From assembly GCA_047651235.1 (NCBI GenBank), contig CP178758.1, positions 3,150,001-3,182,000 of the forward strand: a stretch of DNA of 32,000 nucleotides. The letters are read 5' to 3'. The position numbers were made by a program, and so were the translations under genes. This document shows positions 4,832 to 27,215 of the stretch, one piece after another. The notes under the pieces are model-generated. The model was given only the letters and a program-made list of their open reading frames with translations. It made no database searches and had not been told where the DNA came from. Every line of letters begins with the position of its first letter. Position 1 is the first letter of the stretch. This DNA comes from Candidatus Electrothrix yaqonensis. GTDB lineage: Bacteria; Desulfobacterota; Desulfobulbia; Desulfobulbales; Desulfobulbaceae.

Positions 4832-6634
4832 TCACATATCCCCTTTGATCCGCAGAGCTTCCTCCACCGTGGTCAGGCCGCTGCGCACCTTCTGCCAGGC
4901 ATCTTCACTGAGCGTGGTCATGCCTTCCCGGATGGCGACCTGCCGCAGTTCAGCATCTGCTGCTTTTTCCGTAACAAGTTTTTTGATTTTGTCCGAGACA
5001 GGAAAAATTTCAAAAACTCCCATTCTTCCGGCATAGCCGGTGTTTCGGCATTCTTTGCAGCCTTTGCCCCGTTTCAGCTCGATCTGCCCTTGGCCGGACA
5101 CGGGAAACCCCATTTTCTGCAGCTCGGCAACCTCGATCTGATACCCTTCAATACAATGGGGACAGATCTGTCGGACAAGGCGCTGGGCCAGGGCACCGAG
5201 CATGGTGGAACCGATCAGAAAGGGTTCCAGGCCGAGATCCTGCAGACGGACAATAGTGGAGACCGCGTCGTTGGTATGCAGGGTGGAAAAGACCAGATGG
5301 CCGGTCAGAGCAGCCTGCACCGCATGGGTGGCCGTGTCAACATCTCTGATCTCGCCGATCATGATCACATCCGGATCCTGGCGCAGGATATTGCGGAGAA
5401 TGGTAGAAAAGGTGACATCAATCAGCGGCTGGACAGAAATTTGGTTGAAATCCTCATGCACCATCTCCACCGGGTCTTCAATCGTCACAATATTGATTTC
5501 CGGGGAAGCGATTTTTTTCAGGGTGGAGTACAGAGTTGTTGACTTACCGCTGCCGGTCGGCCCGGTGACCAGGACAATGCCGTGCGGAGCAGTGATAAAG
5601 GAGTTGTATACTGCTTTGTCCCGTTTGGAAAAACCCAGATCGTCCAGATCCTGAAAAATAACATGGGTATCCAGGATACGCATGACCGTCTTTTCCCCGA
5701 AAGACACCGGAATGGTGGAAACGCGCAGTTCCGCTTCCCTACCGTCTTTCTGGCCGATTTTGATTCTGCCGTCCTGAGGGCGGCGTTTCTCCGCAATATC
5801 CAGTCTGGCCAGAGCCTTGATACGGGAAGTAACCGCCGAATGCACAGCCTTGGGCAGCTTATAGATGGTATGGAGCACACCGTCGATCCGATAACGGACC
5901 AGACAGCTGTTCCGTTTCGGCTCCACATGGATATCACTGGCCCGCTGCTCCAGAGCATAGTTGAACAGATGATTGACAGCGGCCTTGATGTGCTGGTCTG
6001 TCGAACTCAGTTCCTGGGCGCTGGACAGCTTGACATACTGCTCCAGATTGCCGATGTCCACGGTTGCAGCGCTGCCGGTACTTGAAAACTGATTTTCCGC
6101 TGCTGTAATGGAGCGCTGAAAGCCGAAAAATTCAGCGAGAATCTTGCGGATATCTGTTCTGGTGCTGAGGTAGGGTTTGACTTTGGTCTGGTTGACCTGC
6201 TCAATATCCTCCAGGGGTGTTTTGTTGTCCGGATCATAGGTGACAACCAGGAGAACCCCGTTGCGGATTTCAAAGGGCAGGATCAGATGGTTGACGGCAA
6301 AGGAACGGGGAATCGTCTTGGTGACGATTTCAATATCCAGCTCAAGCGGGTCGAGCTTTTTAAACGGGATGCGCAGTTTGTGGCTCACCGCCCGCATAAT
6401 CAGCTCTTCGGTAAGGAACTTCTGCTGGCTGCCGGGCAGTTCCAGTTTCAGCGAGGAGATGATATCCACCATGTCGGGATATCCCCGGCCGGCCTGCTTC
6501 TGGTCTCCGACCAGTTTGCTGAGCTGCTGCTTTTGTCTGTCCTTATGGCGGAGAACAAACTGTTTCTGTTTGGGGGTCAGCAGGCGTTGCGAGATGAGCA
6601 GATCGAGCAGTTTGTCACTGTTAAGCAATCCCAT
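4832..6634 (-). CDS. GspE/PilB-family secretion or type IV pilus assembly ATPase
   Basis: 600 aa. It has a T2SSE N-terminal domain, Walker A GPTGSGKSTT, an Asp box/Walker B (DPDVIMIGEIRD), a His box (TGHLVFSTLHTND) and a tetracysteine motif CPHC...CKEC. Confidence 0.9.
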   Translation of the reverse strand: MGLLNSDKLLDLLISQRLLTPKQKQFVLRHKDRQKQQLSKLVGDQKQAGRGYPDMVDIISSLKLELPGSQQKFLTEELIMRAVSHKLRIPFKKLDPLELDIEIVTKTIPRSFAVNHLILPFEIRNGVLLVVTYDPDNKTPLEDIEQVNQTKVKPYLSTRTDIRKILAEFFGFQRSITAAENQFSSTGSAATVDIGNLEQYVKLSSAQELSSTDQHIKAAVNHLFNYALEQRASDIHVEPKRNSCLVRYRIDGVLHTIYKLPKAVHSAVTSRIKALARLDIAEKRRPQDGRIKIGQKDGREAELRVSTIPVSFGEKTVMRILDTHVIFQDLDDLGFSKRDKAVYNSFITAPHGIVLVTGPTGSGKSTTLYSTLKKIASPEINIVTIEDPVEMVHEDFNQISVQPLIDVTFSTILRNILRQDPDVIMIGEIRDVDTATHAVQAALTGHLVFSTLHTNDAVSTIVRLQDLGLEPFLIGSTMLGALAQRLVRQICPHCIEGYQIEVAELQKMGFPVSGQGQIELKRGKGCKECRNTGYAGRMGVFEIFPVSDKIKKLVTEKAADAELRQVAIREGMTTLSEDAWQKVRSGLTTVEEALRIKGDM

Positions 6635-8210: not shown

Positions 8211-8660
8211 TTAACAGGGCTGATTGCTTTCCGGCCAGAATGCATGATCAAGTGCCAGTTCACAAGGCCACGGGCATTGTTCCGGAAAAGTGCTTTTGGG
8301 CAGCCCGGTTTCTTTTGCCGCGCCGGTACGGGCATATTTATAGGCCCGCTCAACAGCCTGGGGGATTTTTTGTCTCAGACTGGGATTATCCTGCAGATGA
8401 TCTGCAATCTGATCACGCTGTTCTTCAATGGTATACCGCCAGCTGTTGCCCTGATATCCCGGCTGAAACTGCCATTTGAGGAGGTGAATGAAAAGGACGG
8501 TTAATCTGCTGACAAGTTCACGCTGCAGACTTCGTCCCATATCCTCTATTTCCTCGGCAAGATGCTCGCGGTCAAGTTCCGCAAGTCTGCCTGCCCGGAG
8601 CAGCCCGGCCTGCTGCGTTGTCCAGCCGAAGAAATCGGCAGCATGTAGCTCTTCAGCCAT
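8211..8660 (-). CDS. DUF29 domain protein
   Basis: FFGWTTQQAGLLRAGRLAELDREHLAEEIEDMGRSLQRELVSRLTVLFIHLLKWQFQP matches the DUF29 pattern I know from cyanobacteria and proteobacteria. GGGAA SD upstream of ATG 8660. GC is visibly higher than in both flanking genes. Confidence 0.8.
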   Translation of the reverse strand: MAEELHAADFFGWTTQQAGLLRAGRLAELDREHLAEEIEDMGRSLQRELVSRLTVLFIHLLKWQFQPGYQGNSWRYTIEEQRDQIADHLQDNPSLRQKIPQAVERAYKYARTGAAKETGLPKSTFPEQCPWPCELALDHAFWPESNQPC

Positions 8661-9029: not shown

Positions 9030-9836
9030 TTAGATATTTTTTATATTCTTCGTAATAACTGATGCCAATAATTCAATAAGCCCTAGTTGAAGGAAAACAA
9101 CTTTATCCTTTCTGGTTTCCAGAACGTCAACACTTTCTGTGTTGTCAAAATCATTACCATGGGCCACCTCATGGCGCTTCCTATTGATTTCGTCAAGAAA
9201 TTCTTGCCATAAAGTTCTGCGAGCTACTTTTATTGTACTCTCTTTTAGATTTAGTCTTGATTCCTGGCAACTATAAGGAAAAACGACAAGGCTTTTTTTT
9301 AAGATACTTCTTTCCTTGTCTATAGACTCCTTCAATTCTCGATTTGTTCCTGAAAACACATTGTCAAGCTCTGAGTCATGCAAACAGGAAAAAACATTTT
9401 CTACCCCAAAACCACTGAATATCAACTTAATAGTATCTGGTTTTGGATTCTTGTTTGTAGTCGTTAGAAATGGTTCAAAAGAGATATTGGCTTCAAGTTC
9501 TGAAAATTTTTCCGAAAGATTTTTGACTTTCTTCCAATAACTGTGACTGCGTTTGTCAGGAGGGTTCCCGATATATTTTATGCAATATGTGTTTTGAATT
9601 TTCTGGGGTAATTCGGAGAATGAACAATTTTTATTTAAATCTTGACTTACTGATCTGACAAGTTCTTTTGTAAAACCTTCTAAGTGAGCGACCAACAATA
9701 CCGTTATAGAACGACATAAGGCATTGTACAAATCGTAATTTAAATCTTCTTGCTTTTTAGCTTCACCAAGAAGAATATCTATCTCCTGCCATTTTTCGTC
9801 AAGTTGATCCAGAAATTCCGACAGAAAAGTTGCCAT
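9030..9836 (-). CDS. HEPN-like nuclease (MAE_28990/MAE_18760-type family, recollection)
   Basis: 268 aa and helical. N-terminal LLVAHLEGFTKELV and C-terminal Rx4H motif (NRKRHEVAHGND). Its ATG shares one nucleotide with the DUF262 stop (TAATG at 9834-9838). Confidence 0.7.
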   Translation of the reverse strand: MATFLSEFLDQLDEKWQEIDILLGEAKKQEDLNYDLYNALCRSITVLLVAHLEGFTKELVRSVSQDLNKNCSFSELPQKIQNTYCIKYIGNPPDKRSHSYWKKVKNLSEKFSELEANISFEPFLTTTNKNPKPDTIKLIFSGFGVENVFSCLHDSELDNVFSGTNRELKESIDKERSILKKSLVVFPYSCQESRLNLKESTIKVARRTLWQEFLDEINRKRHEVAHGNDFDNTESVDVLETRKDKVVFLQLGLIELLASVITKNIKNI

Positions 9837-10921
9837 TAGGAGATAACCTCCATCCCCTTTTGAATTCTTGTAGTGAGTTTTGAAACATCTGTGACGCTTC
9901 CTTCAACGGACGAAAAAAAAGTTTTATCATGGAAAAGTTCTCTGATTTTTTTAATATCTAAAGTTTTCTTTTTTTCGGAAAGAGAAACCGGAACGACTAT
10001 TGAGTCAAAAACAGCGGCATTAAATTTTGACATTCTACGAAGTTCGCCATCTACGCTCCTGTATTTTGCGAACGGTAATTTTTCACCTGATAATTTAATA
10101 TGCTCAAAAGTAGATAGAAAGAAATCTTCCATTTTTTCCAATTCTTCTTTGTCAAGTTTATTGAATTGTTCCATTCTTTCTGTTAGGAATTTTTTAAATT
10201 CCCCTTTATACTGTTTATATCCTTCTTTATAAGCTAACGAAAAAAACCTTAAAACAAGCTCCTCGTCTTCCATTTTCTGGACTCTTTTGCTGTCTTCTTT
10301 GTCTAAAGAGCATAATTCTCTAAAGTTATTATTTTTAGATATTTTTTTAATGAGTTTTTTAAACGGCCCTCGACAGGTTGCATTTCTTAACTCTTGAGGT
10401 TCAAGTGTTACAGAACCTGAATTTAACCTTTCAAAAATATCGTATTTAACTTGGCTGTCAGCCGTTGAATCAATACGTAGACATCGAATAGTTCTTTCTT
10501 CCAGTCTTCTAATTAAAAAGGGCGGAAGATCCCTATAGTATGAATTATTTAACTCTGTAAGAACCTCTAAACCATTTAGGGAATATTTATTTTTTAAAAA
10601 ACTATAAATAGCTGTTAATCTTTGCTGACCATCAATAACAGAATATCTTGAAACATCCTCTTCAACTTCTTCGTCAACATCTATATCTTGCGATATATAA
10701 ATAAATGGGACAGGAATATTAAGGATCAAACTTTCAATTAACCTAGAAGAAACTTCGTCACTCCATCGATGCCTCCGTTGATATTCAGGATTTAATTGTA
10801 TAGTTTTTCTGTCTATTTTTTTTACTAATGTTTCAAGATCATACTCAATTGTTTGAGTTTTTACAGTTCTCTCTTTGGCTTTTCTTTGAATGCTTTCTAA
10901 TTTTTTTTTCAGACCGGACAT
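9836..10921 (-). CDS. DUF262 (ParB-like/GmrSD N-terminal type) domain protein
   Basis: Has the QRRHRW...VIDGQQRLTAIYSF motif. No DUF1524/His-Me nuclease half is present. Start placed at ATG 10921 (MSGLKKK...), with an AGGGGA SD 8 nt upstream. The track start at 10984 is GTG. Confidence 0.85.
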   Translation of the reverse strand: MSGLKKKLESIQRKAKERTVKTQTIEYDLETLVKKIDRKTIQLNPEYQRRHRWSDEVSSRLIESLILNIPVPFIYISQDIDVDEEVEEDVSRYSVIDGQQRLTAIYSFLKNKYSLNGLEVLTELNNSYYRDLPPFLIRRLEERTIRCLRIDSTADSQVKYDIFERLNSGSVTLEPQELRNATCRGPFKKLIKKISKNNNFRELCSLDKEDSKRVQKMEDEELVLRFFSLAYKEGYKQYKGEFKKFLTERMEQFNKLDKEELEKMEDFFLSTFEHIKLSGEKLPFAKYRSVDGELRRMSKFNAAVFDSIVVPVSLSEKKKTLDIKKIRELFHDKTFFSSVEGSVTDVSKLTTRIQKGMEVIS

Positions 10922-11004
10922 TGACTTTTCCCCTAACAAACAAATACAATTTAAATATTCCAAAGGTGCAACTGTCAGATACACCTTTGGAACAAGTCCT
11001 CCGT

Positions 11005-13851: not shown

Positions 13852-14845
13852 CTATTTTTGAGCGTTATGCCGAAGGTCGGTTATCAGACTAACCACCAGC
13901 CGGATGAGCAGGTCTTTCTGCTCCGGTGCGCTGGAGGCGATAAGCAGGGTCAGGGCGACCAGGACCTGGTCGTCAGGAAGCGACCGGTGCTGATTACTCT
14001 GCAGAAACAGGAGAAAAAGAAACGAACCGATTCGTTTGTTGCCGTCCGTGAATGGATGATCCTTGATGACAAAATAGAGCAGATGGGCTGCTTTTCCCTC
14101 TATGCCGGGATAGAACATCCTGTCCGGCAAAGCTCTGGCCTACAGCCCCGATAATCCCAGCCAAGCCGTGCCCCCGCTCCTGACCGAAAATCTCGGTGGC
14201 CTCGCCTCGTTCCAGTAAATCCAGACGCAGGGAGGCAATAGCTTCCCGTACTTCCGCAGTCTCAGGTACTCTGCCGGTTTTCTTTCCCGCCTTGGGAAGG
14301 GGCAAAGAATCCTCATCATACTGCCAGAGCAACTGCCAGGTGCGGGCATAGTCTCTGACCAGCATCAGCACAGTCCTGCCATCATCATTGACCAGATCGT
14401 GGTTTTCCAAGGTGTTACTCAATAAGTCCAGCACCTGCCTGATTTCGGCAGCACTTTTTTCCGCCAGCCGTTTCTGATGCAATGTGTATCCTTGAACCAG
14501 ATGCTGTTTCAGCACGGTAGTCGCCCAGATACGGAATTGGGTGCCACGCTTGGAGTTAACCCGATAGCCCACGGAAATGATGGCGTCAAGGTTATAGTAA
14601 TCGACCTGATAGGTCTTGCCGTCTGCGGCAGTTGTTGCATTTTTTGCAACAACTACTGAACGCTCCAGCTCCTCAGACTGAAAGATATTACGAAGATGTC
14701 TTGAGATTACCGACTTATCACGCTCAAAAAGCTCAGCAATCTGGTTTAAGGTCAACCAGACTGTCTCATCCTTCAGCCGTACATCAATCCCGGTTTGACC
14801 GTCGTTGGTTTGATATAAAATGACTTCACTTTGCGTAGGTAACAT
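13852..14845 (-). pseudogene. RhuM-family / Fic-DOC fusion gene with a single frameshift
   Basis: ORF 13994-14845 carries the RhuM-type N-terminus (VILYQTNDGQTGIDVRLKDETVWLTLNQIAELF...GTQFRIWAT). The Fic core (GIEGKAAHLLYFVIKDHPFTDGNKRIGS) continues in another frame (13852-14130). The frame changes at about 14113-14122, consistent with a 1-nt deletion. GGAG SD upstream of ATG 14845. Confidence 0.8.
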
Positions 14846-14909
14846 TTGTTTGCTCCTTGTTTGTCGTACAGCAACGGGCTACAGAACCCCTACCTCATCC
14901 TTCCCCCGT

Positions 14910-14998
14910 CCCGAACAGCTGCTCCAGCTTGTTGAGCAGGGCCGTGAGCAGTTTGGAGTCTGCTGGTTTATGTTCGATCAGGAAACGCCATTTGCCGG
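14910..14998 (-). repeat. Copy B of the ~89-bp repeat (orphan 3'-end fragment)
   Basis: 81 of 89 nt identical to 15761-15849 by hand alignment. The minus strand translates as (T)NTSGKWRFLIEHKPADSKLLTALLNKLEQLFGTGEG*. There is no start codon, and an in-frame TGA lies a few codons upstream. Confidence 0.9.
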
Positions 14999-15007
14999 AG
15001 GTATTTG

Positions 15008-15451
15008 TTAAAGCTGTTCAACCTCCTTTGAAGCAATCAGCTCTTCAATTTCCTGAATCAGTGCTGGCAGATTAGGCTGCTCAAAGCTCATATTCGGTGC
15101 CGGAATGCGGTTTCGTTTGATGTTCGGAGGAATATGTTTGTGGTGAGGATGTGTACTTGCCAGAGATGTGCTGTTTGGATGAGGCTGGGAATCGTACCAA
15201 TACAACTTCTCATCATCCTTCCATACTTCGTAGCCGTACCAGTCGGTTACAATGGGAATTTGCCCGAACAGAACACGTTCGCGAAGTACCAGTCTGAATC
15301 CATGCTCGAAGTGCAGTTCCCCGAAAACCCTCCCCAGTGTTGAACCGCGCCGAACAAAGACCAGACTTGAACGCTGCACAGAGGGAAACTGTTCCGTAAT
15401 CGTGTACAGGAACAGTTCGTAATCTTCCGGTGTGCGAAACGGGGTACTCAT
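15008..15451 (-). CDS. DUF6516/TumE-like putative toxin-antitoxin component
   Basis: 147 aa with YWYDSQPHPNSTSLASTHPHHKH, which resembles the DUF6516 pattern (recollection of the ...PHHKH motif). The ATG overlaps the upstream stop (ATGA, 15448-15451). Confidence 0.55.
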   Translation of the reverse strand: MSTPFRTPEDYELFLYTITEQFPSVQRSSLVFVRRGSTLGRVFGELHFEHGFRLVLRERVLFGQIPIVTDWYGYEVWKDDEKLYWYDSQPHPNSTSLASTHPHHKHIPPNIKRNRIPAPNMSFEQPNLPALIQEIEELIASKEVEQL

Positions 15452-15717
15452 GCGGCGACCTGAATAAGACCTTTCAGGCTTGGTGCTTCTCTGTTCTGAC
15501 GCTGAACTTCATTGCGATATTCAGCTAATCGGGTAAGCCAAGTTTTGTACACACTGCCCCACTCACCGAAATCAAGCACCCAGGCATCGTTCTCCGGCTC
15601 TTCACCGCTGACATAAGCGGCATAGAACACATCGGAACGTACCCCGTATTTTCGTTCAAATGATAACAGGTCTTCTTCCAGCGCATGAATATCCATGAGG
15701 ATGTCGCGTAGTTTCAT
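15448..15717 (-). CDS. Small acidic partner protein (putative antitoxin or regulator), unknown family
   Basis: 89 aa. A strong GGAG SD lies 7 nt upstream of ATG 15717. It is translationally coupled to the DUF6516-like gene. Confidence 0.5.
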   Translation of the reverse strand: MKLRDILMDIHALEEDLLSFERKYGVRSDVFYAAYVSGEEPENDAWVLDFGEWGSVYKTWLTRLAEYRNEVQRQNREAPSLKGLIQVAA

Positions 15718-15739: not shown

Positions 15740-16144
15740 TTAATCCATCGGTGTTTTCACCCCGAACAGCTGCTCCAGTTTGTGCAGCAGGGCGGTGACC
15801 AGTTTTGAGTCTGCCGGTTTATGTTCGATCCGGAAACGCCATTTGCCGGTGGAGGTGCGTTCGATTTTGATGTGACTGCGGAGGAGAAAGGTTACGGCTA
15901 CCAGGGTGGCTACCTCGGTGCCGGGGAAGAAGGTTTTGCAGGTTTCATCCTGATTGCGCAGGGCCTCTATGGTTGCGGCCTGCTGCGGGTCTTGGTTGAG
16001 GACGGCCAAGGTGTCCTCAAGGATTTCCGGGTCCAGGTCGGCAGGGGGCGGTGCTGCGGGGAATTCGGCCTGGAAGGCGGCGAAATCCGGGTCAGCGGCG
16101 GCTAGGGTGTGGAGGATGCAGTGGTCTTGTTCAGTTGTGCTCAT
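15740..16144 (-). CDS. 134-aa protein of unknown function, translationally coupled to the CHAT-STAND gene
   Basis: ATG at 16144 lies inside the last codons of the upstream gene (14-nt overlap, 16131-16144). The N-terminal half is acidic and Pro/Ala-rich. A hydrophobic stretch (VATLVAVTFLL) follows, then a conserved C-terminal tail. No family recognised. Confidence 0.65.
   Translation of the reverse strand: MSTTEQDHCILHTLAAADPDFAAFQAEFPAAPPPADLDPEILEDTLAVLNQDPQQAATIEALRNQDETCKTFFPGTEVATLVAVTFLLRSHIKIERTSTGKWRFRIEHKPADSKLVTALLHKLEQLFGVKTPMD
15761..15849 (-). repeat. Copy A of the ~89-bp repeat (the in-gene, intact copy)
   Basis: Encodes GKWRFRIEHKPADSKLVTALLHKLEQLFG within CDS 15740-16144. 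Direct repeats of it lie at 14910-14998 and 13746-13832. Confidence 0.9.
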
Positions 16145-19100
16145 TGAGTTTCTGCTCCAATTGGTCAAGGGGGATGTGTTGCTCCAGTCCGGCCTGCTGC
16201 CAGTTTTGCCGGAGTATGGTTTGGGTTTTCGGGTCGGCGGCTTGAAGTGCCCGGATAAAATTTCGAGCTACGATGACAAAGCTGTGCGGGTCATCAAAGC
16301 GGAGGAAAACCGGCATAGCCTTCAGATACCATTCTCCGGCACTTGCGTAATCCTTCTGTAAGAGGGCAAGCTGTCCAAGCTGGTGATAGGTGCTCGCCGC
16401 GCCATGCTCGTTACTCTGTTTTTCTTTGAGAGTGAGAGATTTTTTATACCAATTTTCTGCTGCTACAAACTCTTGTTGCTCCTGGGCGATTATTCCCAAA
16501 TGGTGATATGTCATTGCCGATCCGGGCTCATCACCTTGTTTTTCTTTGATCTCCAGAGATTTTACATACCATTGTTTCGCTGTTGCAAAGTCGCGCTGTT
16601 CTTCGGCAATTCTTCCTAACTGGTGAAGGGTCACTGACGCACCACGCTCGGTGCCCTGCTCTTCCTCTATCGTTAGAGATTTCTTGTACCATTGTTCTGC
16701 AGCTACAAAGTTCCGTTGCTTTTGAGCGATGCTTCCTAACTGGTGATAGGTGGCTGCCGCCTCGTGCTCGTTGCCCTGTCTGTTAAAAATCGTGAGCGAT
16801 TTCTTATACCACTGTTCCGCTGCGGTAAAATCACGCCGCTCCTCGGCGATAATCCCTATATGGTGATAGGTGACTGCCGCATCGTGCTCGTTGCCATGTT
16901 TTTCAAAGATAGCCAGCGATGTCTTATACCACTTTTTCGCCGCAGCAAAATCCCGCTGCTCCTCAGCAATTCTCCCTAAATCGTGATAACATCTTGCTTC
17001 GCCTATATAATTTTTCTCTTTTTGGTGATGTTCAACAAGGTTGGCAAACAACTGTGCTGCGCCTGCATAATCACGGCTATTCAGAGCATAGGCCGCTAAT
17101 CTTGTAGTTAGGGCGGTGATATCCTGAGCCATGCCAAGATGCTGCGCCAGTTCCAAGGCATGATGAAAATTGCCCTGATGCAGAGCAAAAGGAATGCGTT
17201 GTTCGTGTAATTCTTTCAACGCAAGCTGGTCGGCAAAGCTACCCATGAAATCAACAAAGGCCCGTTTCAACCCTTCCGTTGCCGGATGCTGCCGTTCCAG
17301 ATGACTTTGCAGGGCAGGGTGCATTTGAAAGATATTGCTACCCAGAGCATTGACTAAACCTGCGGTTTCCAGCAAAGCAAAACAGTTTTGAATCGGCTCG
17401 CTGTTTTCCTCCGTGTTCAGCATGTACTGAGCAAGATAATTCTGCTCCACAAACCGCCGATGCAGACCGATCAACTGAAGCACCGGGCCGTATTCCTCCG
17501 GCAGGCCCTGATCAAGCACAGCCAAGGCCGCTAAAATCCGGCTTCCGGATTCGTCTCCTTCAAGCAGGGCAAACTCCTTGCGCAGATCAGCCAGTAGCTC
17601 TTTTGCCCCTTTGTCTTTTAATTGTAGCAGCACCGTGCGCAAAGCCAGCGGATGCCCGTCCAACTCCTCAATCAGAGCACGGAAATCCTCGTCATCCCGC
17701 CTGACGGTCAACCCTAAATCACGCAGCACCTGATTGCAGAACTGCCACAGCTCTTCCCCGTGCAGGCCGGACAGAGGCAGGCGGAAGCATTCCCCGGTAC
17801 TTAGCCATTTTTCCGCAGAGCGGCTGGTGATGAGCACCTTGGTTTTGCCGCCACGCAATCCGGCCAGCAGTTCTTTGAGCAGGCCCCGGTCATCCTCGGA
17901 CAGCATGGGCCGAACTTCCGTGCCTGCAAGCCCGGAGGCGGACTCGAAGTTATCCCAGATCAGCAGAAAGGGGTGCGCCTTCAAGACCTTGATCAACCCG
18001 GCCAGCTTCTGTTCCAGCGGCGCAGCAAGGGCATCGGTACCAAAAATACCGTCAATTAGCTGATTGATCACAAACTCTGCACTGCGGATTTCATCAAAGC
18101 TGAACCAAAAGACCTGCTGCGCAATCTGCTGATCCAGCCCGCCGGTATCCCGCAGCCAATGGAGAAAACCTTTTGCCAAAGTAGTCTTGCCCACACCGGC
18201 CATGCCGTGAATCAGAAAGGCTGCCTGGGGCTGGCGCAAGCGGGCACGTTCCAACTGCTGCACGGCCTGCTGCCGCCCGATAAAGCCGTCATCACCCAAT
18301 TGCCGGGCCTGTTCCGGGAGCGGGTCCGGTGCAGCGTCTTGCTCCAGAGTAAATTTGTCCGCCCCTGGAGTCGCTGCAACCGGTCGTGCCAGCACGGTCT
18401 CATCCCCCTGCATCTGTTGATAGAGCACCGGCACCAGCCAGTCCTGCAAGGGATGTTCACCGAGCAAACAGGGCCGCTGATCATGAACCAGCATGGCCTG
18501 GCGACCGGCACGGGTGGCTTCGGCCACATTGGCGGTTTCCAGTAGGCGGGAGTAAAAGGCAGGCATAAAGTGCTGCGCCCCGCTGACATAGAGGTTATAA
18601 CCCATTGCCATCACGCTACGGATACCGGCCTTGAGCAGGGCCGCTGCTACTGAGGCAAAGGCGTCCTCGGCCTGATCGTCAATCCGGGCCGACTGGCAGG
18701 CGTTGAGCACCATGATCGGAATGCGGTATTCAGCCAGCAGCTCCGAGAGCAGGCGGGCCTCCACCGGGGCAGCCTCAGCCTCGTCATTTTCAAAGAGCAG
18801 CCTGCCCTGCGCCCCGCTTTTGAAAGCGTCCGAGGAAATGCTGTCCTCAGTTGCGCCGTAGCCGCCGTGGCCGTCAAAATGAACAATATGGTAAAATTCC
18901 GGTCTGTCGTGGAGCTGCTGCCGAAGTTGGTCAAAGGTGGGCGGGCGCAGCACGTCAATATGCACAGGCAATTGCTGCTCGCGGGTCAGTTCCACCAGCG
19001 GACGGGACAGGGCATGAAAGCCCACATCGCTGTCCCCGCCGGGTCGGGCAATGACCAGCAGGATGTTGATGCGATCCTTGGGCAAGTTCTCCGGCAACGG

Positions 19101-19604
19101 CAGCGGATCATTCAGGTCTTTGTTGATCTGCCGCTCAATCCGGCAATGATGGGCCAAGGTACCGATCTCCGGGTCATGTATAGCCTCCCAAGGCCAAGCC
19201 AGCACACCGGGATCATCAGAAGAAATCTTCAGATGCAGATTTTCTAGGCCCTTTTGCCGGGCCTCCTGCAACCAGAGATATGCCTGCTTCTGAAACAGGG
19301 CTTCAAAGCAGCTTTTGCCCCATTGTTGCAAGGTATCCTGGACCCGCTCGGCCAGCTCAGGATATGCGCCTGTGGGTAATTCAAGAAACTGCTCCAGATA
19401 CCAGCGCAGATCCTGCTGCAAATTGCTGCTCGGACGACCGGGAACACGGGTCTGATCCGGCCCGGTGAGTGTCACCGGAGCAGAGGTCTTCAGGTCGCTG
19501 CCGCCGCCGCGTATGACGATAAACTGCGGATTGTTCTGCTCGTTGTTCTGATAACCGATATGGTTGATCTGCAACTGGTGCGATTGATGCAGTCGGGAAG
19601 GCAT
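16131..19604 (-). CDS. CHAT protease - NB-ARC (STAND) ATPase - TPR repeat protein
   Basis: 1157 aa. CHAT dyad candidates are HFDGHG (His ~246) and VLNACQS (Cys 303). Walker A is GMAGVGKTT (Lys 473), Walker B is LLIWDNFE, and the NB-ARC GxP motif is GHPLAL. Five near-perfect plus flanking degenerate 40-aa TPR units follow (WYKKSL.I.E.QGNEH.AA.TYHQLG.IA.EQRDF). GGAG SD lies 7 nt upstream of ATG 19604. Confidence 0.9.
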   Translation of the reverse strand: MPSRLHQSHQLQINHIGYQNNEQNNPQFIVIRGGGSDLKTSAPVTLTGPDQTRVPGRPSSNLQQDLRWYLEQFLELPTGAYPELAERVQDTLQQWGKSCFEALFQKQAYLWLQEARQKGLENLHLKISSDDPGVLAWPWEAIHDPEIGTLAHHCRIERQINKDLNDPLPLPENLPKDRINILLVIARPGGDSDVGFHALSRPLVELTREQQLPVHIDVLRPPTFDQLRQQLHDRPEFYHIVHFDGHGGYGATEDSISSDAFKSGAQGRLLFENDEAEAAPVEARLLSELLAEYRIPIMVLNACQSARIDDQAEDAFASVAAALLKAGIRSVMAMGYNLYVSGAQHFMPAFYSRLLETANVAEATRAGRQAMLVHDQRPCLLGEHPLQDWLVPVLYQQMQGDETVLARPVAATPGADKFTLEQDAAPDPLPEQARQLGDDGFIGRQQAVQQLERARLRQPQAAFLIHGMAGVGKTTLAKGFLHWLRDTGGLDQQIAQQVFWFSFDEIRSAEFVINQLIDGIFGTDALAAPLEQKLAGLIKVLKAHPFLLIWDNFESASGLAGTEVRPMLSEDDRGLLKELLAGLRGGKTKVLITSRSAEKWLSTGECFRLPLSGLHGEELWQFCNQVLRDLGLTVRRDDEDFRALIEELDGHPLALRTVLLQLKDKGAKELLADLRKEFALLEGDESGSRILAALAVLDQGLPEEYGPVLQLIGLHRRFVEQNYLAQYMLNTEENSEPIQNCFALLETAGLVNALGSNIFQMHPALQSHLERQHPATEGLKRAFVDFMGSFADQLALKELHEQRIPFALHQGNFHHALELAQHLGMAQDITALTTRLAAYALNSRDYAGAAQLFANLVEHHQKEKNYIGEARCYHDLGRIAEEQRDFAAAKKWYKTSLAIFEKHGNEHDAAVTYHHIGIIAEERRDFTAAEQWYKKSLTIFNRQGNEHEAAATYHQLGSIAQKQRNFVAAEQWYKKSLTIEEEQGTERGASVTLHQLGRIAEEQRDFATAKQWYVKSLEIKEKQGDEPGSAMTYHHLGIIAQEQQEFVAAENWYKKSLTLKEKQSNEHGAASTYHQLGQLALLQKDYASAGEWYLKAMPVFLRFDDPHSFVIVARNFIRALQAADPKTQTILRQNWQQAGLEQHIPLDQLEQKLNEHN
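16334..17000 (-). repeat. Tandem 120-bp coding repeats (TPR units) inside the CHAT-STAND gene
   Basis: On the + strand, TGGTGA(T/A)(A/G)GGT... recurs at 16381, 16501, 16621, 16741 and 16861. Degenerate units lie on both sides. The period is exactly 120 nt and in frame. Confidence 0.85.
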
Positions 19605-20964: not shown

Positions 20965-23118
20965 TCAGTGATGTAGTCTGCCCACGGATGTATGCAGGGC
21001 AAGGGCAGCCGGTACAGGCTCTGTCTCTTCTGTATGCGTATGCTGCGGGGGAGTACTCAGCAGCTGCCGTTCCTGTTCCGATTCGGCGTATTTGATGGCA
21101 ACCTCCCGGAAGGACTCATGCACCCGCATAAAAACAGCAATGAGTTCCGGATCAAAATGTGTGCCGCTGTCCCCCTGCATGATAGCCACAGCCTTTTCAT
21201 GCCTGACCGGTTTTTTGTAGGGCCGTTTTGAGGTCAGGGCATCATACACGTCCGCAATCGCCATGATGCGGCCTGCCAGCGGGATCTCTTCGCCGGAAAG
21301 TCCCTGAGGATAGCCGCTGCCGTCCCATTTTTCCTGATGAGTATACGCGATTTCCAGAGCTTTTTCCAGAAAACGGTTCCTGCCCACTCTTTTCAGCGCA
21401 ATCTCGATGATCTGCTTCCCGTAATATGTATGCTTTTTGATCTCCTCAAACTCGTCTCTGTCCAGACGCCCCGGTTTCAGCAGGATGCTGTCCGGAATGC
21501 CTATCTTGCCCACGTCATGCAGCGGAGCGACCCTGCAGATAACTTCCGTTTCTTCAGAGGAGAGGGCATCCTGGAACTTTTCTGTTTTCTGCAGCTCTTC
21601 CGCCATAATCTGCAGATAACGCTGGGTTCTTCTGATATGCCCTCCGGTCTCCTGGTCCCGTGCCTCTGTCAGTGCTGTGATAATTTCCAGCATTGCCTCC
21701 TGCATCAGAAAAAATTCCTGTTTCCTCTTCCGGCGCCTATGTTCGGACCTATAAAATTTCATCAGATAAACCAGGAAAAAACTGCAGATCAGAGAAAAAA
21801 CAGGATACAGAGGAGAAAGAAAAATACCGGTGGCTGCAAACAGGGCTTCCCCTCCGCGAAAAAGTCCTGCTCCGATCAGGACGAAAGCAAGCAGGCCTGT
21901 CCACGTTCCGAAACGGAAAAACAAAACGGTCGCAGACAGACCTGTGAGTAAAATAATACCGGTTTCCAGCGCCTCCTTCCAGTGAGGATGCAGCAGAAAA
22001 TCTCTGCCGAGAATATTGTCCACAATATTGGCATGAAATTCCACTCCGGGAAAAATCGAATCAAAAGGCATGTGATGCGTATCCTGCAGTCCGGCAGCAG
22101 AGGTTCCCACCAGTACAACCCTGTTTCTGAACTTGCCTGACCGCACATTACCGTTCAGGATGTCGGCAGCGGAAATATACTCAAACGTCCGGGCCGGACC
22201 TCTGAACCTGACAGTAAAAAAACCTTTTCGGTCCAGCGGGATAAACAAATCATCCAGCATGATGCCTTCCACGCCGAACCTGGAAACTCTGAGAAGCTGC
22301 GTTGCGGGCTGCAGGGCCGTGATCACAGTGGCAAGAGAAAGGTTAGGATATATTTTGCCCTGATAGGCCATCAGCAGGGGCACTCTGCGCAATATCCCGT
22401 CATGATCCGGAGACGTATTGACAAAACCGCTCATTTTTACCGCATCATCCAGCACCGGAATATTACAGACTGCGCCGTCCGCCGTAATCAACGGAAGCTG
22501 ATCCGCAGCAGCACCTTCAGCAAACTTGACCGTAATATTGAGCGGTACCGGAAAACAACGGTCAGTCGATTCCTGTCCGGATTCCTCCCCGTCAAAGGTC
22601 AGATACATACCGGGAACAAACTTTCCATGCGCCAGGGTGTCAGCAAGTAACTCTTCACTTTCAAACAGATAATCCGGAATACCCGAATCCCTGAAACTGA
22701 TACCGAACTGATTCTCTATGGTCTTGCGGACATTTTTCAGAGAGGTTCCTTCCGCATCCGGAAAAAAGATATCCAGTCCTACAGCCGCTGGCTGATCAAA
22801 ATTAATTTTCTCCAGTAGTTCGGCAATCCTGTATCTCGGCCAGGGCCATTTTCCGTATTCTTTCAACGATTTTTCATCAATATCCACAATAAGCGGAATG
22901 CCTGTCGTCGCCGAAATGCGGGATGCCCACAGGTAATAGTCGTAAATTTTCAGACTGATGTCGGAAAGAATCGGCTGGGGAAACATGCAGAGGAGGGTCA
23001 TGATTGATGTCGGGAGCATCCCGAACACCAGCGGGAACCAAGGGACAGAATGTTTTGCCCTCCCGGATCGGACTGATCCGGTTCGAGACCGGATGCCTGA
23101 TACAGACGGAACGGTCAT
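20965..23118 (-). CDS. CHASE2 sensor / HD-GYP domain protein (putative c-di-GMP phosphodiesterase)
   Basis: An N-terminal TM helix, a large extracytoplasmic CHASE2-like region (IVDIDEKSLKEYGKWPWPR...) and a TM cluster. The C-terminal domain is HD-GYP (HDVGKIGIP...HQEKWDGSGYPQGL...IADVYDALTSKRPYK). Confidence 0.9.
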   Translation of the reverse strand: MTVPSVSGIRSRTGSVRSGRAKHSVPWFPLVFGMLPTSIMTLLCMFPQPILSDISLKIYDYYLWASRISATTGIPLIVDIDEKSLKEYGKWPWPRYRIAELLEKINFDQPAAVGLDIFFPDAEGTSLKNVRKTIENQFGISFRDSGIPDYLFESEELLADTLAHGKFVPGMYLTFDGEESGQESTDRCFPVPLNITVKFAEGAAADQLPLITADGAVCNIPVLDDAVKMSGFVNTSPDHDGILRRVPLLMAYQGKIYPNLSLATVITALQPATQLLRVSRFGVEGIMLDDLFIPLDRKGFFTVRFRGPARTFEYISAADILNGNVRSGKFRNRVVLVGTSAAGLQDTHHMPFDSIFPGVEFHANIVDNILGRDFLLHPHWKEALETGIILLTGLSATVLFFRFGTWTGLLAFVLIGAGLFRGGEALFAATGIFLSPLYPVFSLICSFFLVYLMKFYRSEHRRRKRKQEFFLMQEAMLEIITALTEARDQETGGHIRRTQRYLQIMAEELQKTEKFQDALSSEETEVICRVAPLHDVGKIGIPDSILLKPGRLDRDEFEEIKKHTYYGKQIIEIALKRVGRNRFLEKALEIAYTHQEKWDGSGYPQGLSGEEIPLAGRIMAIADVYDALTSKRPYKKPVRHEKAVAIMQGDSGTHFDPELIAVFMRVHESFREVAIKYAESEQERQLLSTPPQHTHTEETEPVPAALALHTSVGRLHH

Positions 23119-24977: not shown

Positions 24978-27215
24978 ATGGCCAAAAAAACAGCTCCTCC
25001 GAAAGCCTCCCTTAAACGAACCGTCAAAGATCAGTCCGGGGCTGGCAAGCTTAAAATCGGTGAACTTCTGCAGAAGGCCGGATACATCACTGCGGCCGAG
25101 TTTAATCATGCCAAGGATATCAACAAGAAGACCGGGGAACGGCTGGGTAAAATCCTGCTCGAAAAAGGTATTATTGAACGGGACACCATACCTAATTTCC
25201 TGACTAGACTGCATAACTACACCCTGGTCAACATTGCCGAGGAGCCTCCGGGACAGGATGCGCTTAAGCTCCTTCCTTACGAAACCGCCAAGCAGTACCT
25301 TGCCTTCCCGCTCAGAATTGCCGGTGATACGCTGCAGCTCACTATGGCCGAACCCACCGATGCTCTGGAGGTGGAGGAACTGCAGAATACGGTCAAAATG
25401 GGCCTTGATGTCTGCGTATCAACCGCTAAAGATATCATAGATGCCTACAGAACCTACTATAAAATCGATGATGAAGAGTATAAGTCCTTTTTCGCCGAGG
25501 ATGATGACCAGGATGTTCATGTCGAACAGGTTGAAGACTGGGGTGCCTTGGTTTCCGATGTTGCCGACGAATTCGAGTTCGAAGAAAGCGGTGAAGATGA
25601 TGATGGTGTTTCCGGACAGTTTTCTGCTAATGATGCCCCGATCATCAAGCTGGTCAACGGTATTCTGGTCAAGGCTGTACAGGACGGGGTCAGCGATATC
25701 CATATTGAACCCTTTGAAAGCTCGATGCAGGTACGTTACCGCAAGGACGGTTCCCTGTTCAAGTCCATGAACCTGCCCCTGACGATTAAAAATGCTCTGG
25801 TCGCCCGCATGAAGATCCTAGCTGATCTCAACATCACCGAACGCCGGGTGCCCCAGGACGGACGTATCAGAATCCGGCTGGGCCGGAAAAAGGCGGTGGA
25901 TTTCCGTGTCTCCACCCTGCCGCTGCTCCACGGTGAAGGCATTGTTCTCCGTATTCTGGATAAGGGGTCGCTGAATGTTGATCTGACCAAACTGGGTTTT
26001 GAACCGGAAACGTTTGAGATCCTGAAAAAATGTCTTTCCAGTCCGCAGGGGCTGCTCCTGGTTACCGGACCGACCGGTTCAGGTAAAACCGTTACCCTGT
26101 ATTCTGCTCTCAACTCGCTGAACAGCGAGGATATCAAGATCCTCACTGCCGAGGATCCGGTGGAGTTCAACTTCAAGGGTATTAATCAGGTCAATGTCAA
26201 CGTTGAAGTGGGTATGACCTTTCCCGCCGCCCTGAAAGCCTTCCTCCGGCAGGATCCGGACATCATCATGGTCGGTGAGATCCGCGATATCAGTACAGCG
26301 GAAATCGCCATGAAGGCGGCCATGACCGGCCATCTGGTTTTCAGTACCCTGCATACCAATGACTCACCGTCAACGGTCGGCCGTATGGTGGACATTGGTA
26401 TTCCTCCTTATCTGCTGGCTTCCTCTCTGACTATGGTCCTGGCCCAGCGGCTCGGCAGACGGCTCTGCGCCAAGTGCAAACAGCCGGTCACCATTGAACG
26501 GCAGGAGCTGCGCAATATCGGTTTTACCGAAGAGCAGATTGATACAGAGGGATTTCAGATCTACGGGCCTAAAGGCTGTGCGACGTGCAACGGACTGGGC
26601 TACAAGGGCCGGGTCGGTTTCTTCGAGTTGCTGGAGGTTACGGAAGACGTTGCCCAGGCTATTCAGGCTGAAGTGTCAGAAGAGCAGCTGCGTAAGGTCG
26701 CTGTTCAGTCCGGTATGGTTCCCCTGCGTCAGGCAGCCATTAAAAAGGCCATTCAGGGAATCACCAGTATAGACGAGGTACTCCGCCGGACAGTCGCCCA
26801 TGAGGATACCATGCCTGCCTACCTTGTCAATCCGGATATAGAAGAATACGAAGACGGGGATATTATTATTCAGGAAGGCAATGAGGATGATAAGAATTTC
26901 TACAAGCTGGTCAGAGGCAAGGTCGGTGTCCTGAAGCAGGGGAAAAAAATCGCCGAGATAACCGAGCCGGGAGAGTATTTCGGCGAAATGGCCTGCATTA
27001 TGAACGAGGCCAGATATGCCTCGGTTATTTCCCTCGGACGCTGCAAAATAAAACGGTATCCCGGTGAAAAACTAACTGAACTTATTGAAAAGTATCCTGA
27101 AATTTCGAGAAAACTGTTCAGGACTATGGCAAAGCGGCTGCGTAAAACCGACAATATTGTTATTCAGCTTGCCGGAGGCAAAAGGGGACCGGGACCAGGA
27201 CCGCGACCGCGATAA
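24978..27215 (+). CDS. PilB/MshE/GspE-family ATPase with an N-terminal MshEN-like tandem motif and a C-terminal cyclic-nucleotide-binding domain
   Basis: 745 aa. Core motifs are Walker A GPTGSGKTVT, DPDIIMVGEIRD, TGHLVFSTLHTND and CAKC...CATC. The N-terminus is KIGELLQKAGYITAAEFNHAKDIN-KKTGE-RLGKILLEKGIIERDTIPNFLTRL. The C-terminus is CAP_ED-like (DIIIQEGNEDDKNFYKLVRGKVGV...GEYFGEMACIMNEARYASV). The tail is GPGPGPRPR. Confidence 0.9.
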   Translation: MAKKTAPPKASLKRTVKDQSGAGKLKIGELLQKAGYITAAEFNHAKDINKKTGERLGKILLEKGIIERDTIPNFLTRLHNYTLVNIAEEPPGQDALKLLPYETAKQYLAFPLRIAGDTLQLTMAEPTDALEVEELQNTVKMGLDVCVSTAKDIIDAYRTYYKIDDEEYKSFFAEDDDQDVHVEQVEDWGALVSDVADEFEFEESGEDDDGVSGQFSANDAPIIKLVNGILVKAVQDGVSDIHIEPFESSMQVRYRKDGSLFKSMNLPLTIKNALVARMKILADLNITERRVPQDGRIRIRLGRKKAVDFRVSTLPLLHGEGIVLRILDKGSLNVDLTKLGFEPETFEILKKCLSSPQGLLLVTGPTGSGKTVTLYSALNSLNSEDIKILTAEDPVEFNFKGINQVNVNVEVGMTFPAALKAFLRQDPDIIMVGEIRDISTAEIAMKAAMTGHLVFSTLHTNDSPSTVGRMVDIGIPPYLLASSLTMVLAQRLGRRLCAKCKQPVTIERQELRNIGFTEEQIDTEGFQIYGPKGCATCNGLGYKGRVGFFELLEVTEDVAQAIQAEVSEEQLRKVAVQSGMVPLRQAAIKKAIQGITSIDEVLRRTVAHEDTMPAYLVNPDIEEYEDGDIIIQEGNEDDKNFYKLVRGKVGVLKQGKKIAEITEPGEYFGEMACIMNEARYASVISLGRCKIKRYPGEKLTELIEKYPEISRKLFRTMAKRLRKTDNIVIQLAGGKRGPGPGPRPR

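Follow-up and report, generated by a model that had tools for sequence, protein, structure and literature searches.

We analysed a 32,000-nucleotide stretch of the genome of Candidatus Electrothrix yaqonensis (contig CP178758.1, positions 3,150,001 to 3,182,000 of the forward strand, hereafter the window), and focus here on two overlapping genes on its minus strand. The larger encodes a protein, built much like the immune receptors of animals and plants, that joins a caspase-like CHAT protease to a STAND nucleotide-binding switch and a C-terminal tetratricopeptide repeat (TPR) array, and the smaller a protein of 134 residues outside any named family. We found that this pair travels together in at least five phyla, between unrelated flanks. 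An earlier reading made from the DNA letters and their translations alone (the sequence-only reading) had put the pair forward as a candidate conflict module. Both proteins are 100% identical to database entries of Candidatus Electrothrix sp. YB6, and the two genes and their parts lie in the window as follows:

16131..19604, minus strand: large gene, 1157 residues, CHAT protease / STAND NTPase / TPR protein (open reading frame list and Pfam)
19272..19604, minus strand: N-terminal pre-domain of the large protein, residues 1-111, a beta-hairpin (residues 9-33) and helices, followed by CHAT (AlphaFold2, AF2, model)
18438..19271, minus strand: CHAT caspase-like protease domain, residues 112-389 (Pfam PF12770, E 4e-22)
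18867-18869 and 18696-18698, minus strand: codons of the catalytic residues His246 and Cys303
17220..18284, minus strand: STAND nucleotide-binding oligomerisation module, residues ~441-795 (Pfam NACHT, NB-ARC and AAA_16), with the P-loop Lys473 (codon 18186-18188), Walker B WDNFE (550-554), GHP (650-652) and helical/winged-helix parts
16281..17120, minus strand: seven regular 40-residue TPR_12-type repeats, residues 829-1108 (repeat register and Tandem Repeats Finder, TRF)
16131..16280, minus strand: C-terminal tail, residues 1109-1157, with the motif LRQxWQQAGL (homologue comparison)
16131..16158, minus strand: coupling junction, with GGAG at 16158-16155, the small-gene ATG at 16144-16142 and the large-gene TGA at 16133-16131
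15740..16144, minus strand: small gene, 134 residues, unnamed family (open reading frame list and homologues)
15926..16144, minus strand: N-terminal acidic helical domain of the small protein, residues 1-73, adaptor-like
15743..15925, minus strand: C-terminal basic module of the small protein, residues 74-134, with a hydrophobic helix, a beta-hairpin and an amphipathic helix

To follow the pair through other genomes, loci were gathered by exact-protein look-ups and by scans of genomes, metagenomes (with a 13-sequence alignment) and plasmids, and were scored with a small-family hidden Markov model (HMM) and by the domains of the large protein; 40 distinct small genes had usable upstream sequence. 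We found that 36/40 had a large-protein homologue or its TPR end immediately upstream on the same strand and that 2/40 were fused in frame to TPRs, giving 38/40 that are linked, with the two orphans (L007 and L047) lying in transposon-rich or unrelated DNA. In the opposite direction, 9/9 sampled large homologues at 45% identity or more carry the small gene directly downstream, and the consistent linkage on which the sequence-only reading leaned therefore stands from both sides. The nine loci (the window, E. laxa, Electronema, Rhabdochromatium, Nitrosomonas aestuarii, Sorangium, Lachnospiraceae, locus L060 and an Acidisarcina plasmid) span Desulfobulbales, Gamma- and Betaproteobacteria, Myxococcota, Clostridia and an Acidobacteriota plasmid. 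Intact pairs are spaced by about -43 to +31 nucleotides, and an overlap of exactly 14 nucleotides, as in the window, is also seen in E. laxa, in Electronema and on a Lachnospiraceae contig. Flanks differ in all nine loci, the three cable-bacterium genomes included, and none of the window's neighbour genes recurs beside the module in any other locus examined, which suggests that the two genes form one mobile unit.

Variants of the arrangement were also observed. The TPR/C-tail end and the small protein are joined in frame in P0175, P0244 (L030:398-1879) and L029:61-1140, whether as genuine fusions or through the loss of a stop codon. On a Lachnospiraceae contig (L020:1198-9162) two tandem large paralogues with different TPRs are followed by a single small gene, the whole lying within an integrase/relaxase/WYL mobile region, and on the Acidisarcina plasmid (L056:4417-8410) the module is split into three genes encoding CHAT-NTPase, TPR and the small protein (family match E 5e-39). 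A Streptomyces plasmid (L059:4363-8559) carries a similar three-gene split ending in a 130-residue gene, for which profile comparison found no detectable relation to the small family (probability 0.8%); a resemblance is seen in an 'ARxxxLxLAD..P' stretch and a hydrophobic helix of its product. In two termite-gut Clostridiales contigs (L015:511-3637 and L031:2606-6363) the large gene is truncated or decayed and the small gene intact, the L015 large gene being interrupted by a TIR_2 gene on the opposite strand and L031 having two such decayed copies. Over long range the small protein retains ~30-45% identity compared with 42-61% for the TPR array, and since it is conserved at or below the TPR level its rate is neutral on a sensor role in contact with the trigger.

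The three-part architecture of the 1157-residue protein was borne out by its open reading frame and by Pfam, and each of the motifs quoted in the sequence-only reading was found (HFDGHG 242-247, NACQS 301-305, GMAGVGKTT 467-475, LLIWDNFE 547-554 and GHPLAL 650-655). The CHAT domain passes the curated Pfam threshold with 79.4 bits against a cutoff of 24, with Peptidase_C25 as a secondary match. To score residue conservation we aligned 30 large-protein homologues from several phyla: the catalytic His246 (HFDGH) is conserved in 30/30 and Cys303 (NAC) in 29/30, one member having Ser, and both the Walker A Lys473 (GxxGxGK) and the Walker B WDNxE are invariant (30/30 each), so that the catalytic residues noted in the single sequence are those of the family. 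The protease, of clan CD, is apparently active, judging from this conservation. The nucleotide-binding part was initially described as an NB-ARC-type switch. The STAND P-loop holds; the domain matches prefer neither NB-ARC nor NACHT, since NACHT (residues 464-598, E 2e-9) scores 37.7 bits against a cutoff of 26.7 and NB-ARC (residues 458-551, E 1e-7) 31.8 bits against 23.5, both above cutoff. A G[HN]P motif similar to the NB-ARC GxP is conserved in the family, and the top Foldseek folds for the STAND part are PH0952, Apaf-1 and NRC1, with animal NACHT NLRs not among them.

More than 2300 homologues of the large protein were found at E<=1e-10, and the best 120, at 42-82% identity, each have CHAT, NTPase and TPRs in full length; they occur in Desulfobulbales, Gamma- and Betaproteobacteria, Myxococcota, Planctomycetota, Fibrobacterota and Clostridia. 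With the 30-homologue alignment as input, the AF2 model reached a mean pLDDT of 84.7, and its best Foldseek match is the archaeal STAND-TPR protein PH0952 (6mfv, E 2e-16, 736 columns), followed by other near folds that include Apaf-1 (1z6t, E 9e-9), the NRC1 NB-ARC domain and Avs3. By sequence, solved relatives of the large protein were found for the TPRs only. In the pre-domain the model places strands at residues 9-18 and 26-33 and helices within 62-117, and homologues conserve W68-Y-L-E71 and W95-G96. The hairpin of residues 9-33 (window 19505-19580, minus strand) is modelled confidently and is Q/N-rich in this genome (QLQINHIGYQNNEQNNPQFIVIRGGG), the family consensus of the same stretch being LxIRH...FxVxR..DGK.

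TPR_12 matches six stretches of the large protein (E 5e-49), and the DNA of the array has a period of 120 nucleotides (TRF). The repeats resemble in fold the peptide-binding TPRs of LGN and kinesin light chain (KLC), and the solenoid is the presumed ligand- or partner-binding part of the protein. Comparing 145 repeats from 30 proteins, we found that identity across phyla is 75-100% at most of the 40 positions and that positions 9, 20, 27, 36 and 40 are hypervariable (entropy 2.6-3.1 bits), a pattern expected of a recognition surface on a consensus scaffold. Near-identical TPR units with a few hypervariable sites resemble the repeats of fungal (allorecognition) NLRs. The number of repeats differs among homologues. 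Beyond the array, the tail motif is kept in the homologues that bear a small partner and in the SIR2-linked P0117, and is absent in P0155 and P0119.

The small open reading frame runs in full from 15740 to 16168 (minus strand), and its 134 residues are counted from the ATG at 16144. That ATG sits 14 nucleotides inside the large gene, as had been read originally, with GGAG 10 nucleotides 5' of it; from the layout of this junction, the small gene is translationally coupled to the large one. Its product has 50 close relatives, with 75-86% identity within cable bacteria and ~40% in Gammaproteobacteria, and a search of a library of 1.8 billion representatives returned 414 cluster representatives at E<=1e-3, nearly all of them stand-alone proteins of 120-180 residues. 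Across the family identity falls from 86% to ~25% with the domain pattern fixed, and on this pattern the small open reading frame is evidently a real gene family. It lies outside every named family, as the sequence-only reading had suspected: no match to Pfam (21 diverse members scanned up to E<=10), NCBIfam or PADLOC was found, nor any credible match to the PDB by sequence profile, and Foldseek returned no match at E<=0.1 for the AF2 model against the PDB and the viral models of BFVD. Weak PDB fold matches include winged-helix types (ORC2, Cdt1, PadR, MepR and Fur), a hint at most.

The AF2 model of the small protein is compact (pLDDT 75, pTM 0.67), with about six helices, a beta-hairpin at residues 92-106 and a C-terminal helix. 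Combined with isoelectric points (pI) and the alignment, it upholds the initial description of an acidic N-terminal half, one hydrophobic segment and a conserved C-terminal part: the N-terminal half of the family has a median pI of 4.5 and a net charge of -6, and the C-terminal module a median pI of 9.7. Conservation is strongest in this basic module, in the motif A..FLLR[TS]HIKIER...GKWxFxIEHKP, and among 146 non-redundant members is highest at L88 (96%), G100 (88%), P110 (83%) and H91 (82%). In at least one linked member, L060, the motif is degenerate, which suggests that it has a structural or interface role and not a catalytic one, and an enzymatic role for the H91/E107 motif was ruled out on this ground. 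A transmembrane reading of the hydrophobic segment was likewise ruled out (11-16 residues, buried in the AF2 model), and the idea that cleavage follows a basic P1 residue where the two domains meet was rejected, as R/K occurs there in only ~44% of members.

At 42-44% identity, large homologues that lack the small gene have other neighbours instead. One is paired with a SIR2_2 gene (L054:7827-8984), and its receptor still has the C-tail motif of the partner-bearing receptors; in Tahibacter (L053:349-8065) two tandem receptors without a small gene are followed by a DEAD/MZB helicase and an RNase H-like gene; and in a third locus (L055:2578-4011) a DUF900 alpha/beta-hydrolase gene overlaps the start of the receptor by 11 nucleotides. 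Over its first 90-114 residues this hydrolase shows homology to the small protein's N-terminal domain plus its central helix. The small-family N-domain aligned to the hydrolase N-terminus by hhalign with 96% probability (E 2e-9), and the full-length small-family profile with 87%, residues 1-114 being aligned. The same domain was not detected in the SIR2 neighbour of L054 or in a 236-residue neighbour in L055, and a wider search with the DUF900 hydrolase N-terminus for more fusions gave no match. Homologues on cyanobacterial plasmids, at ~34% identity, have no same-strand small gene downstream. Between the small and large families themselves, profile-profile comparison found no shared domain or motif (best hhalign probability 0.6%). 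On the reading favoured below, the small protein would occupy the slot that is filled by SIR2 or the hydrolase beside more distant receptors.

Downstream of the pair, on the same strand, the window contains a further set of features:

15448-15717 and 15008-15451, minus strand: TumA-like gene and TumE gene (Pfam, PADLOC and NCBIfam)
14895..15002, minus strand: dead 3' end of a small gene, ending in GKWRFLIEHKPADSKLLTALLNKLEQLFGTGEG and a stop (small-family HMM match and translation)
13852-14845, minus strand: RhuM-Fic/DOC gene, PADLOC PDC-S23 (331-residue model), frameshifted

The sequence-only reading had counted four toxin-like genes here, on the same strand and without obvious promoters, and neither the count nor the lack of promoters was borne out. 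The genes are the TumA-like/TumE pair and one RhuM-Fic gene that a single frameshift splits into 13994-14845 (the RhuM part, 283 residues) and 13852-14130 (92 residues, with the Fic motif HPFTDGNKR), either as a pseudogene or by an assembly error, and a promoter-like site (15743-15716) and a strong ribosome-binding site precede the TumA-like gene. A 92-nucleotide direct repeat of 90% identity (14910-15001 and 15761-15852) brackets the TumA/TumE cassette, and the small-gene remnant, which has 91% DNA identity to 15761-15849, is closer to the Electrothrix orthologues than is the live copy. This repeat and remnant of the small-gene 3' end suggest that TumA/TumE are a secondary insertion (or recombination) at the 3' boundary of the module, which appears to have given the small protein a new seven-residue tail. 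The downstream genes were ruled out as part of the operon unit, as no other locus has them and the repeat flanks the cassette.

Elsewhere in the window, a low-GC block (9030-10984, minus strand; 32-35%, against a background of about 51%) contains the genes of a RiboL-PSP-type HEPN protein (268 residues) and a GmrSD_N/DUF262 protein (382 residues), probably a horizontally acquired defence pair, and is adjoined by a DUF29 gene at 8211-8660. Two secretion-type T2SSE/MshEN ATPases, one with a cNMP-binding domain, and a CHASE2-HD-GYP protein (4832-6634, minus strand; 24978-27215, plus strand; 20965-23118, minus strand) are neighbours of an ordinary housekeeping or signalling kind. Neither a tRNA nor an Rfam match was found in the window.

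Avs proteins are reportedly bacterial NLR-related STAND defence proteins. Similar to Avs and bNACHT, the large protein has an N-terminal effector, a STAND NTPase and a C-terminal repeat sensor, with fold matches to Avs3 and Apaf-1. In PADLOC-DB v2 no Avs or other system-specific model matched it, the only matches being weak and generic (TPR 8e-13, SAVED_CHAT 4e-5 and PDC-M16A 2e-4, the last to the P-loop). Bacterial NACHT proteins include some with N-terminal caspase-type peptidases, and their genes seldom belong to operons and, where they do, to poorly conserved ones (Kibby et al., bioRxiv 10.1101/2022.07.19.500537); unlike in bNACHT, the small partner described here is conserved across phyla. 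Pairings of a caspase-like protease with a neighbouring protein occur in gasdermin, CARD-NLR and LypABC systems, which are cell-death effector systems. CHAT proteases fused to NACHT or TPR adjoin gasdermins (Johnson et al., bioRxiv 10.1101/2021.06.07.447441), and the protein activated by cleavage has as its neighbour a protease of caspase-like or CHAT type, in some cases with NACHT, TPR, LRR or WD40 fused to it (Johnson et al.; LypABC, PMC13236601). Unlike in the gasdermin systems, the partner here has 134 residues, lies downstream and overlaps the protease gene, and no gasdermin signature was found in the small family (125-155 residues), either with Pfam in the 21 members scanned or by fold match to the PDB.

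The sequence-only reading had also drawn an analogy to Craspase, the type III-E system in which the TPR-CHAT protein Csx29 reportedly cleaves the neighbour-encoded Csx30. The analogy holds for a CHAT protease with TPRs beside a small gene, the neighbour-encoded product in Craspase being a dedicated substrate, but it fails for the Csx29 layout and for a Csx30-like partner. The order here is CHAT, NTPase, TPR, whereas that of Csx29 is reversed and without the NTPase; Craspase is activated by the RNA-guided gRAMP complex and not by an NTPase switch; and the small protein matches no Pfam, PADLOC or NCBIfam family that would make it a Csx30-like substrate. No CRISPR components were found among the window open reading frames examined, to which the search for a gRAMP/CRISPR association was confined.

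AP-ATPase-TPR-caspase neighbourhoods have been described by Kaur et al. (2020, PMC7159879; 2021, PMC8195603). As in the EAD/Death-like systems of those authors, a small helical domain is common to a stand-alone protein and one alpha/beta-hydrolase (that of L055), both beside STAND-TPR-caspase proteins, and the family is frequent in multicellular bacteria. Unlike in EAD pairs, homotypic pairing is absent, as the STAND protein holds no copy of the domain (the hhalign comparison of the two families given above), and the Pfam EAD, bDLD and EACC models matched nothing in the module proteins. Type IV Thoeris similarly uses a bacterial clan-CD protease, which is reported to be an immune executioner; that system reportedly has a trigger nucleotide made by a TIR protein and no small partner, where the present module instead has a fused STAND/TPR. 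The CHAT/caspase-NTPase-TPR architecture is already catalogued (Kibby, Johnson, Kaur et al.). Keyword searches of the literature found no description of the gene pair or of a conserved small partner.

These observations suggest, with about as much weight for as against, that the pair is a two-gene NLR-like conflict module acting by abortive infection or cell suicide. In it the protease would have the small protein as its dedicated, docked partner and most likely as its substrate or adaptor. If Avs, bNACHT and Apaf-1 are a guide, a trigger would bind to the TPR array, binding would lead to NTP-dependent oligomerisation of the STAND NTPase, and this would bring CHAT domains together and switch the protease on by proximity. 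The acidic N-terminal helical domain may tether the small protein to the receptor, where the active CHAT domain would cleave or release it, leaving the basic hydrophobic C-terminal module as executioner or signal. The proposal of a conflict module in the sequence-only reading is supported by the linkage of the two genes, by the conserved catalytic residues, and by their toxin-antitoxin and mobile contexts. The window itself is of conflict type (toxin-antitoxin genes, Fic, and the HEPN and GmrSD_N pair), other loci are flanked by integrases, transposases, relaxase or plasmid genes, and the flanks in cable bacteria are non-syntenic; a conflict role is favoured by the patchiness and mobility of these contexts and by their likeness to defence islands.

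Several results weigh against this interpretation. Viral contigs were scanned and no relative of the module was found in them, and the module matches no system catalogued in PADLOC. The argument that the N-terminal region is an adaptor domain draws on one fusion to an effector in related loci, that to the L055 DUF900 hydrolase, with the SIR2 neighbour and the 236-residue neighbour negative. For the C-terminal module as executioner, the strongest motif of the family is degenerate in at least one linked member (L060), the hydrophobic helix is too short for an ordinary transmembrane segment, and the alignment singles out no cleavage site, with R/K before the conserved boundary Phe in only ~44% of members. 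Moreover, the small gene persists beside decayed large genes (L015 and L031) or as an orphan (L007), which suggests that the small protein is harmless by itself and could work in trans.

The alternative that survives best, which we consider possible although less probable than a docked substrate or adaptor, is that the small protein is a regulatory subunit, either an antitoxin-like inhibitor that keeps the receptor inactive until infection removes or displaces it, or a co-sensor capping the C-terminal TPR and tail, with CHAT as the sole effector and cutting broadly. It would explain why the small gene invariably lies at the receptor's sensor end, in some cases joined in frame to the TPR tail, and why the tail motif is conserved among partner-bearing receptors. 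It also fits an AF2 model that is a compact soluble globule and intact small genes that, beside decayed receptors, are harmless without a working protease gene, and the caspase-like effector of type IV Thoeris, which reportedly cleaves indiscriminately, provides a precedent. However, a coupled downstream gene cannot yield more product than the gene of the receptor that an inhibitor would act on, and the same N-terminal domain heads the DUF900 hydrolase, a typical effector. For a co-receptor, the difficulty is the Lachnospiraceae locus L020, in which one small gene serves two paralogues with different TPRs.

A more specific form of the substrate reading, which we regard as unlikely, makes the small protein a protease-gated pro-effector. 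Its acidic pro-domain would dock heterotypically and mask a cationic, hydrophobic alpha/beta module of ~60 residues, which CHAT would release to cause membrane damage or to act as a signal, and the pro-domain could also deliver the DUF900 hydrolase.

Just as doubtful, in our estimation, is a module that is not directed against phage at all and instead serves as a developmental or stress cell-death device, or as an allorecognition device, of filamentous multicellular bacteria, for example in the sacrificial or 'ghost' cells of cable filaments. The family is indeed frequent in filamentous or social bacteria (Electrothrix, Electronema, Thiothrix, Thiolinea and Sorangium, with relatives in Nostoc), and conserved repeats with hypervariable sites bring to mind the allorecognition NLRs of fungi. 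Work on cable bacteria mentions caspase-domain genes in relation to ghost cells and filament breakage (PMC12163305), and Kaur et al. (2020, PMC7159879) tie such systems to multicellular prokaryotes. Yet the module is patchy, non-syntenic and found beside mobile or defence genes or on plasmids, which is the signature of an accessory conflict system, and it is also present in metagenome-assembled genomes of gut Clostridia. The roles in cell death and in defence are in any case not mutually exclusive.

Far less probable is prion- or amyloid-like signalling of the kind known from fungal NLR/HET-S and Bell/BASS systems, in which the hairpin at the receptor N-terminus would template that of the small protein. 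A small helical protein does lie beside an NLR-like protein, a beta-hairpin is conserved in both (residues 92-106 of the small and 9-33 of the large protein), and the large-protein hairpin region is Q/N-rich in the window. Against this, profile-profile comparison found no motif in common between the two families, including any between the small-protein C-terminus and the receptor N-terminus as in Bell/BASS, the small-protein hairpin is internal and packed in the globular AF2 model, and the receptor already has its own enzymatic effector; the usual gene order of Bell-NLR pairs is, moreover, reportedly opposite to that of the module. Finally, that the adjacency is accidental or the small open reading frame not real, for which only the absence of annotation speaks, is scarcely credible and is refuted by the fixed domain pattern across 86% to ~25% identity, by linkage in 38/40 and 9/9 cases and by the in-frame fusions.

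NLR-like defence proteins have generally been treated as single-gene systems, and among the catalogued bacterial caspase-like NLR architectures none of this type is known to have been characterised. A small partner that is conserved across phyla and matches no family or fold suggests that receptor activation leads to killing through a step that has gone unrecognised, for which the small protein is a candidate as substrate, adaptor or brake, in the form of a concrete and cloneable gene pair. The small family, with its 414 representatives, and its N-terminal domain merit family definition for annotation. The module is moreover a specific candidate for the cable-bacteria caspase-domain genes that have been discussed in relation to ghost cells (PMC12163305). 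Should the small protein prove to be a protease-gated pro-effector, it would be a minimal, gasdermin-independent executioner that is widespread in multicellular bacteria, and it could underlie cell suicide in the filaments of cable bacteria.

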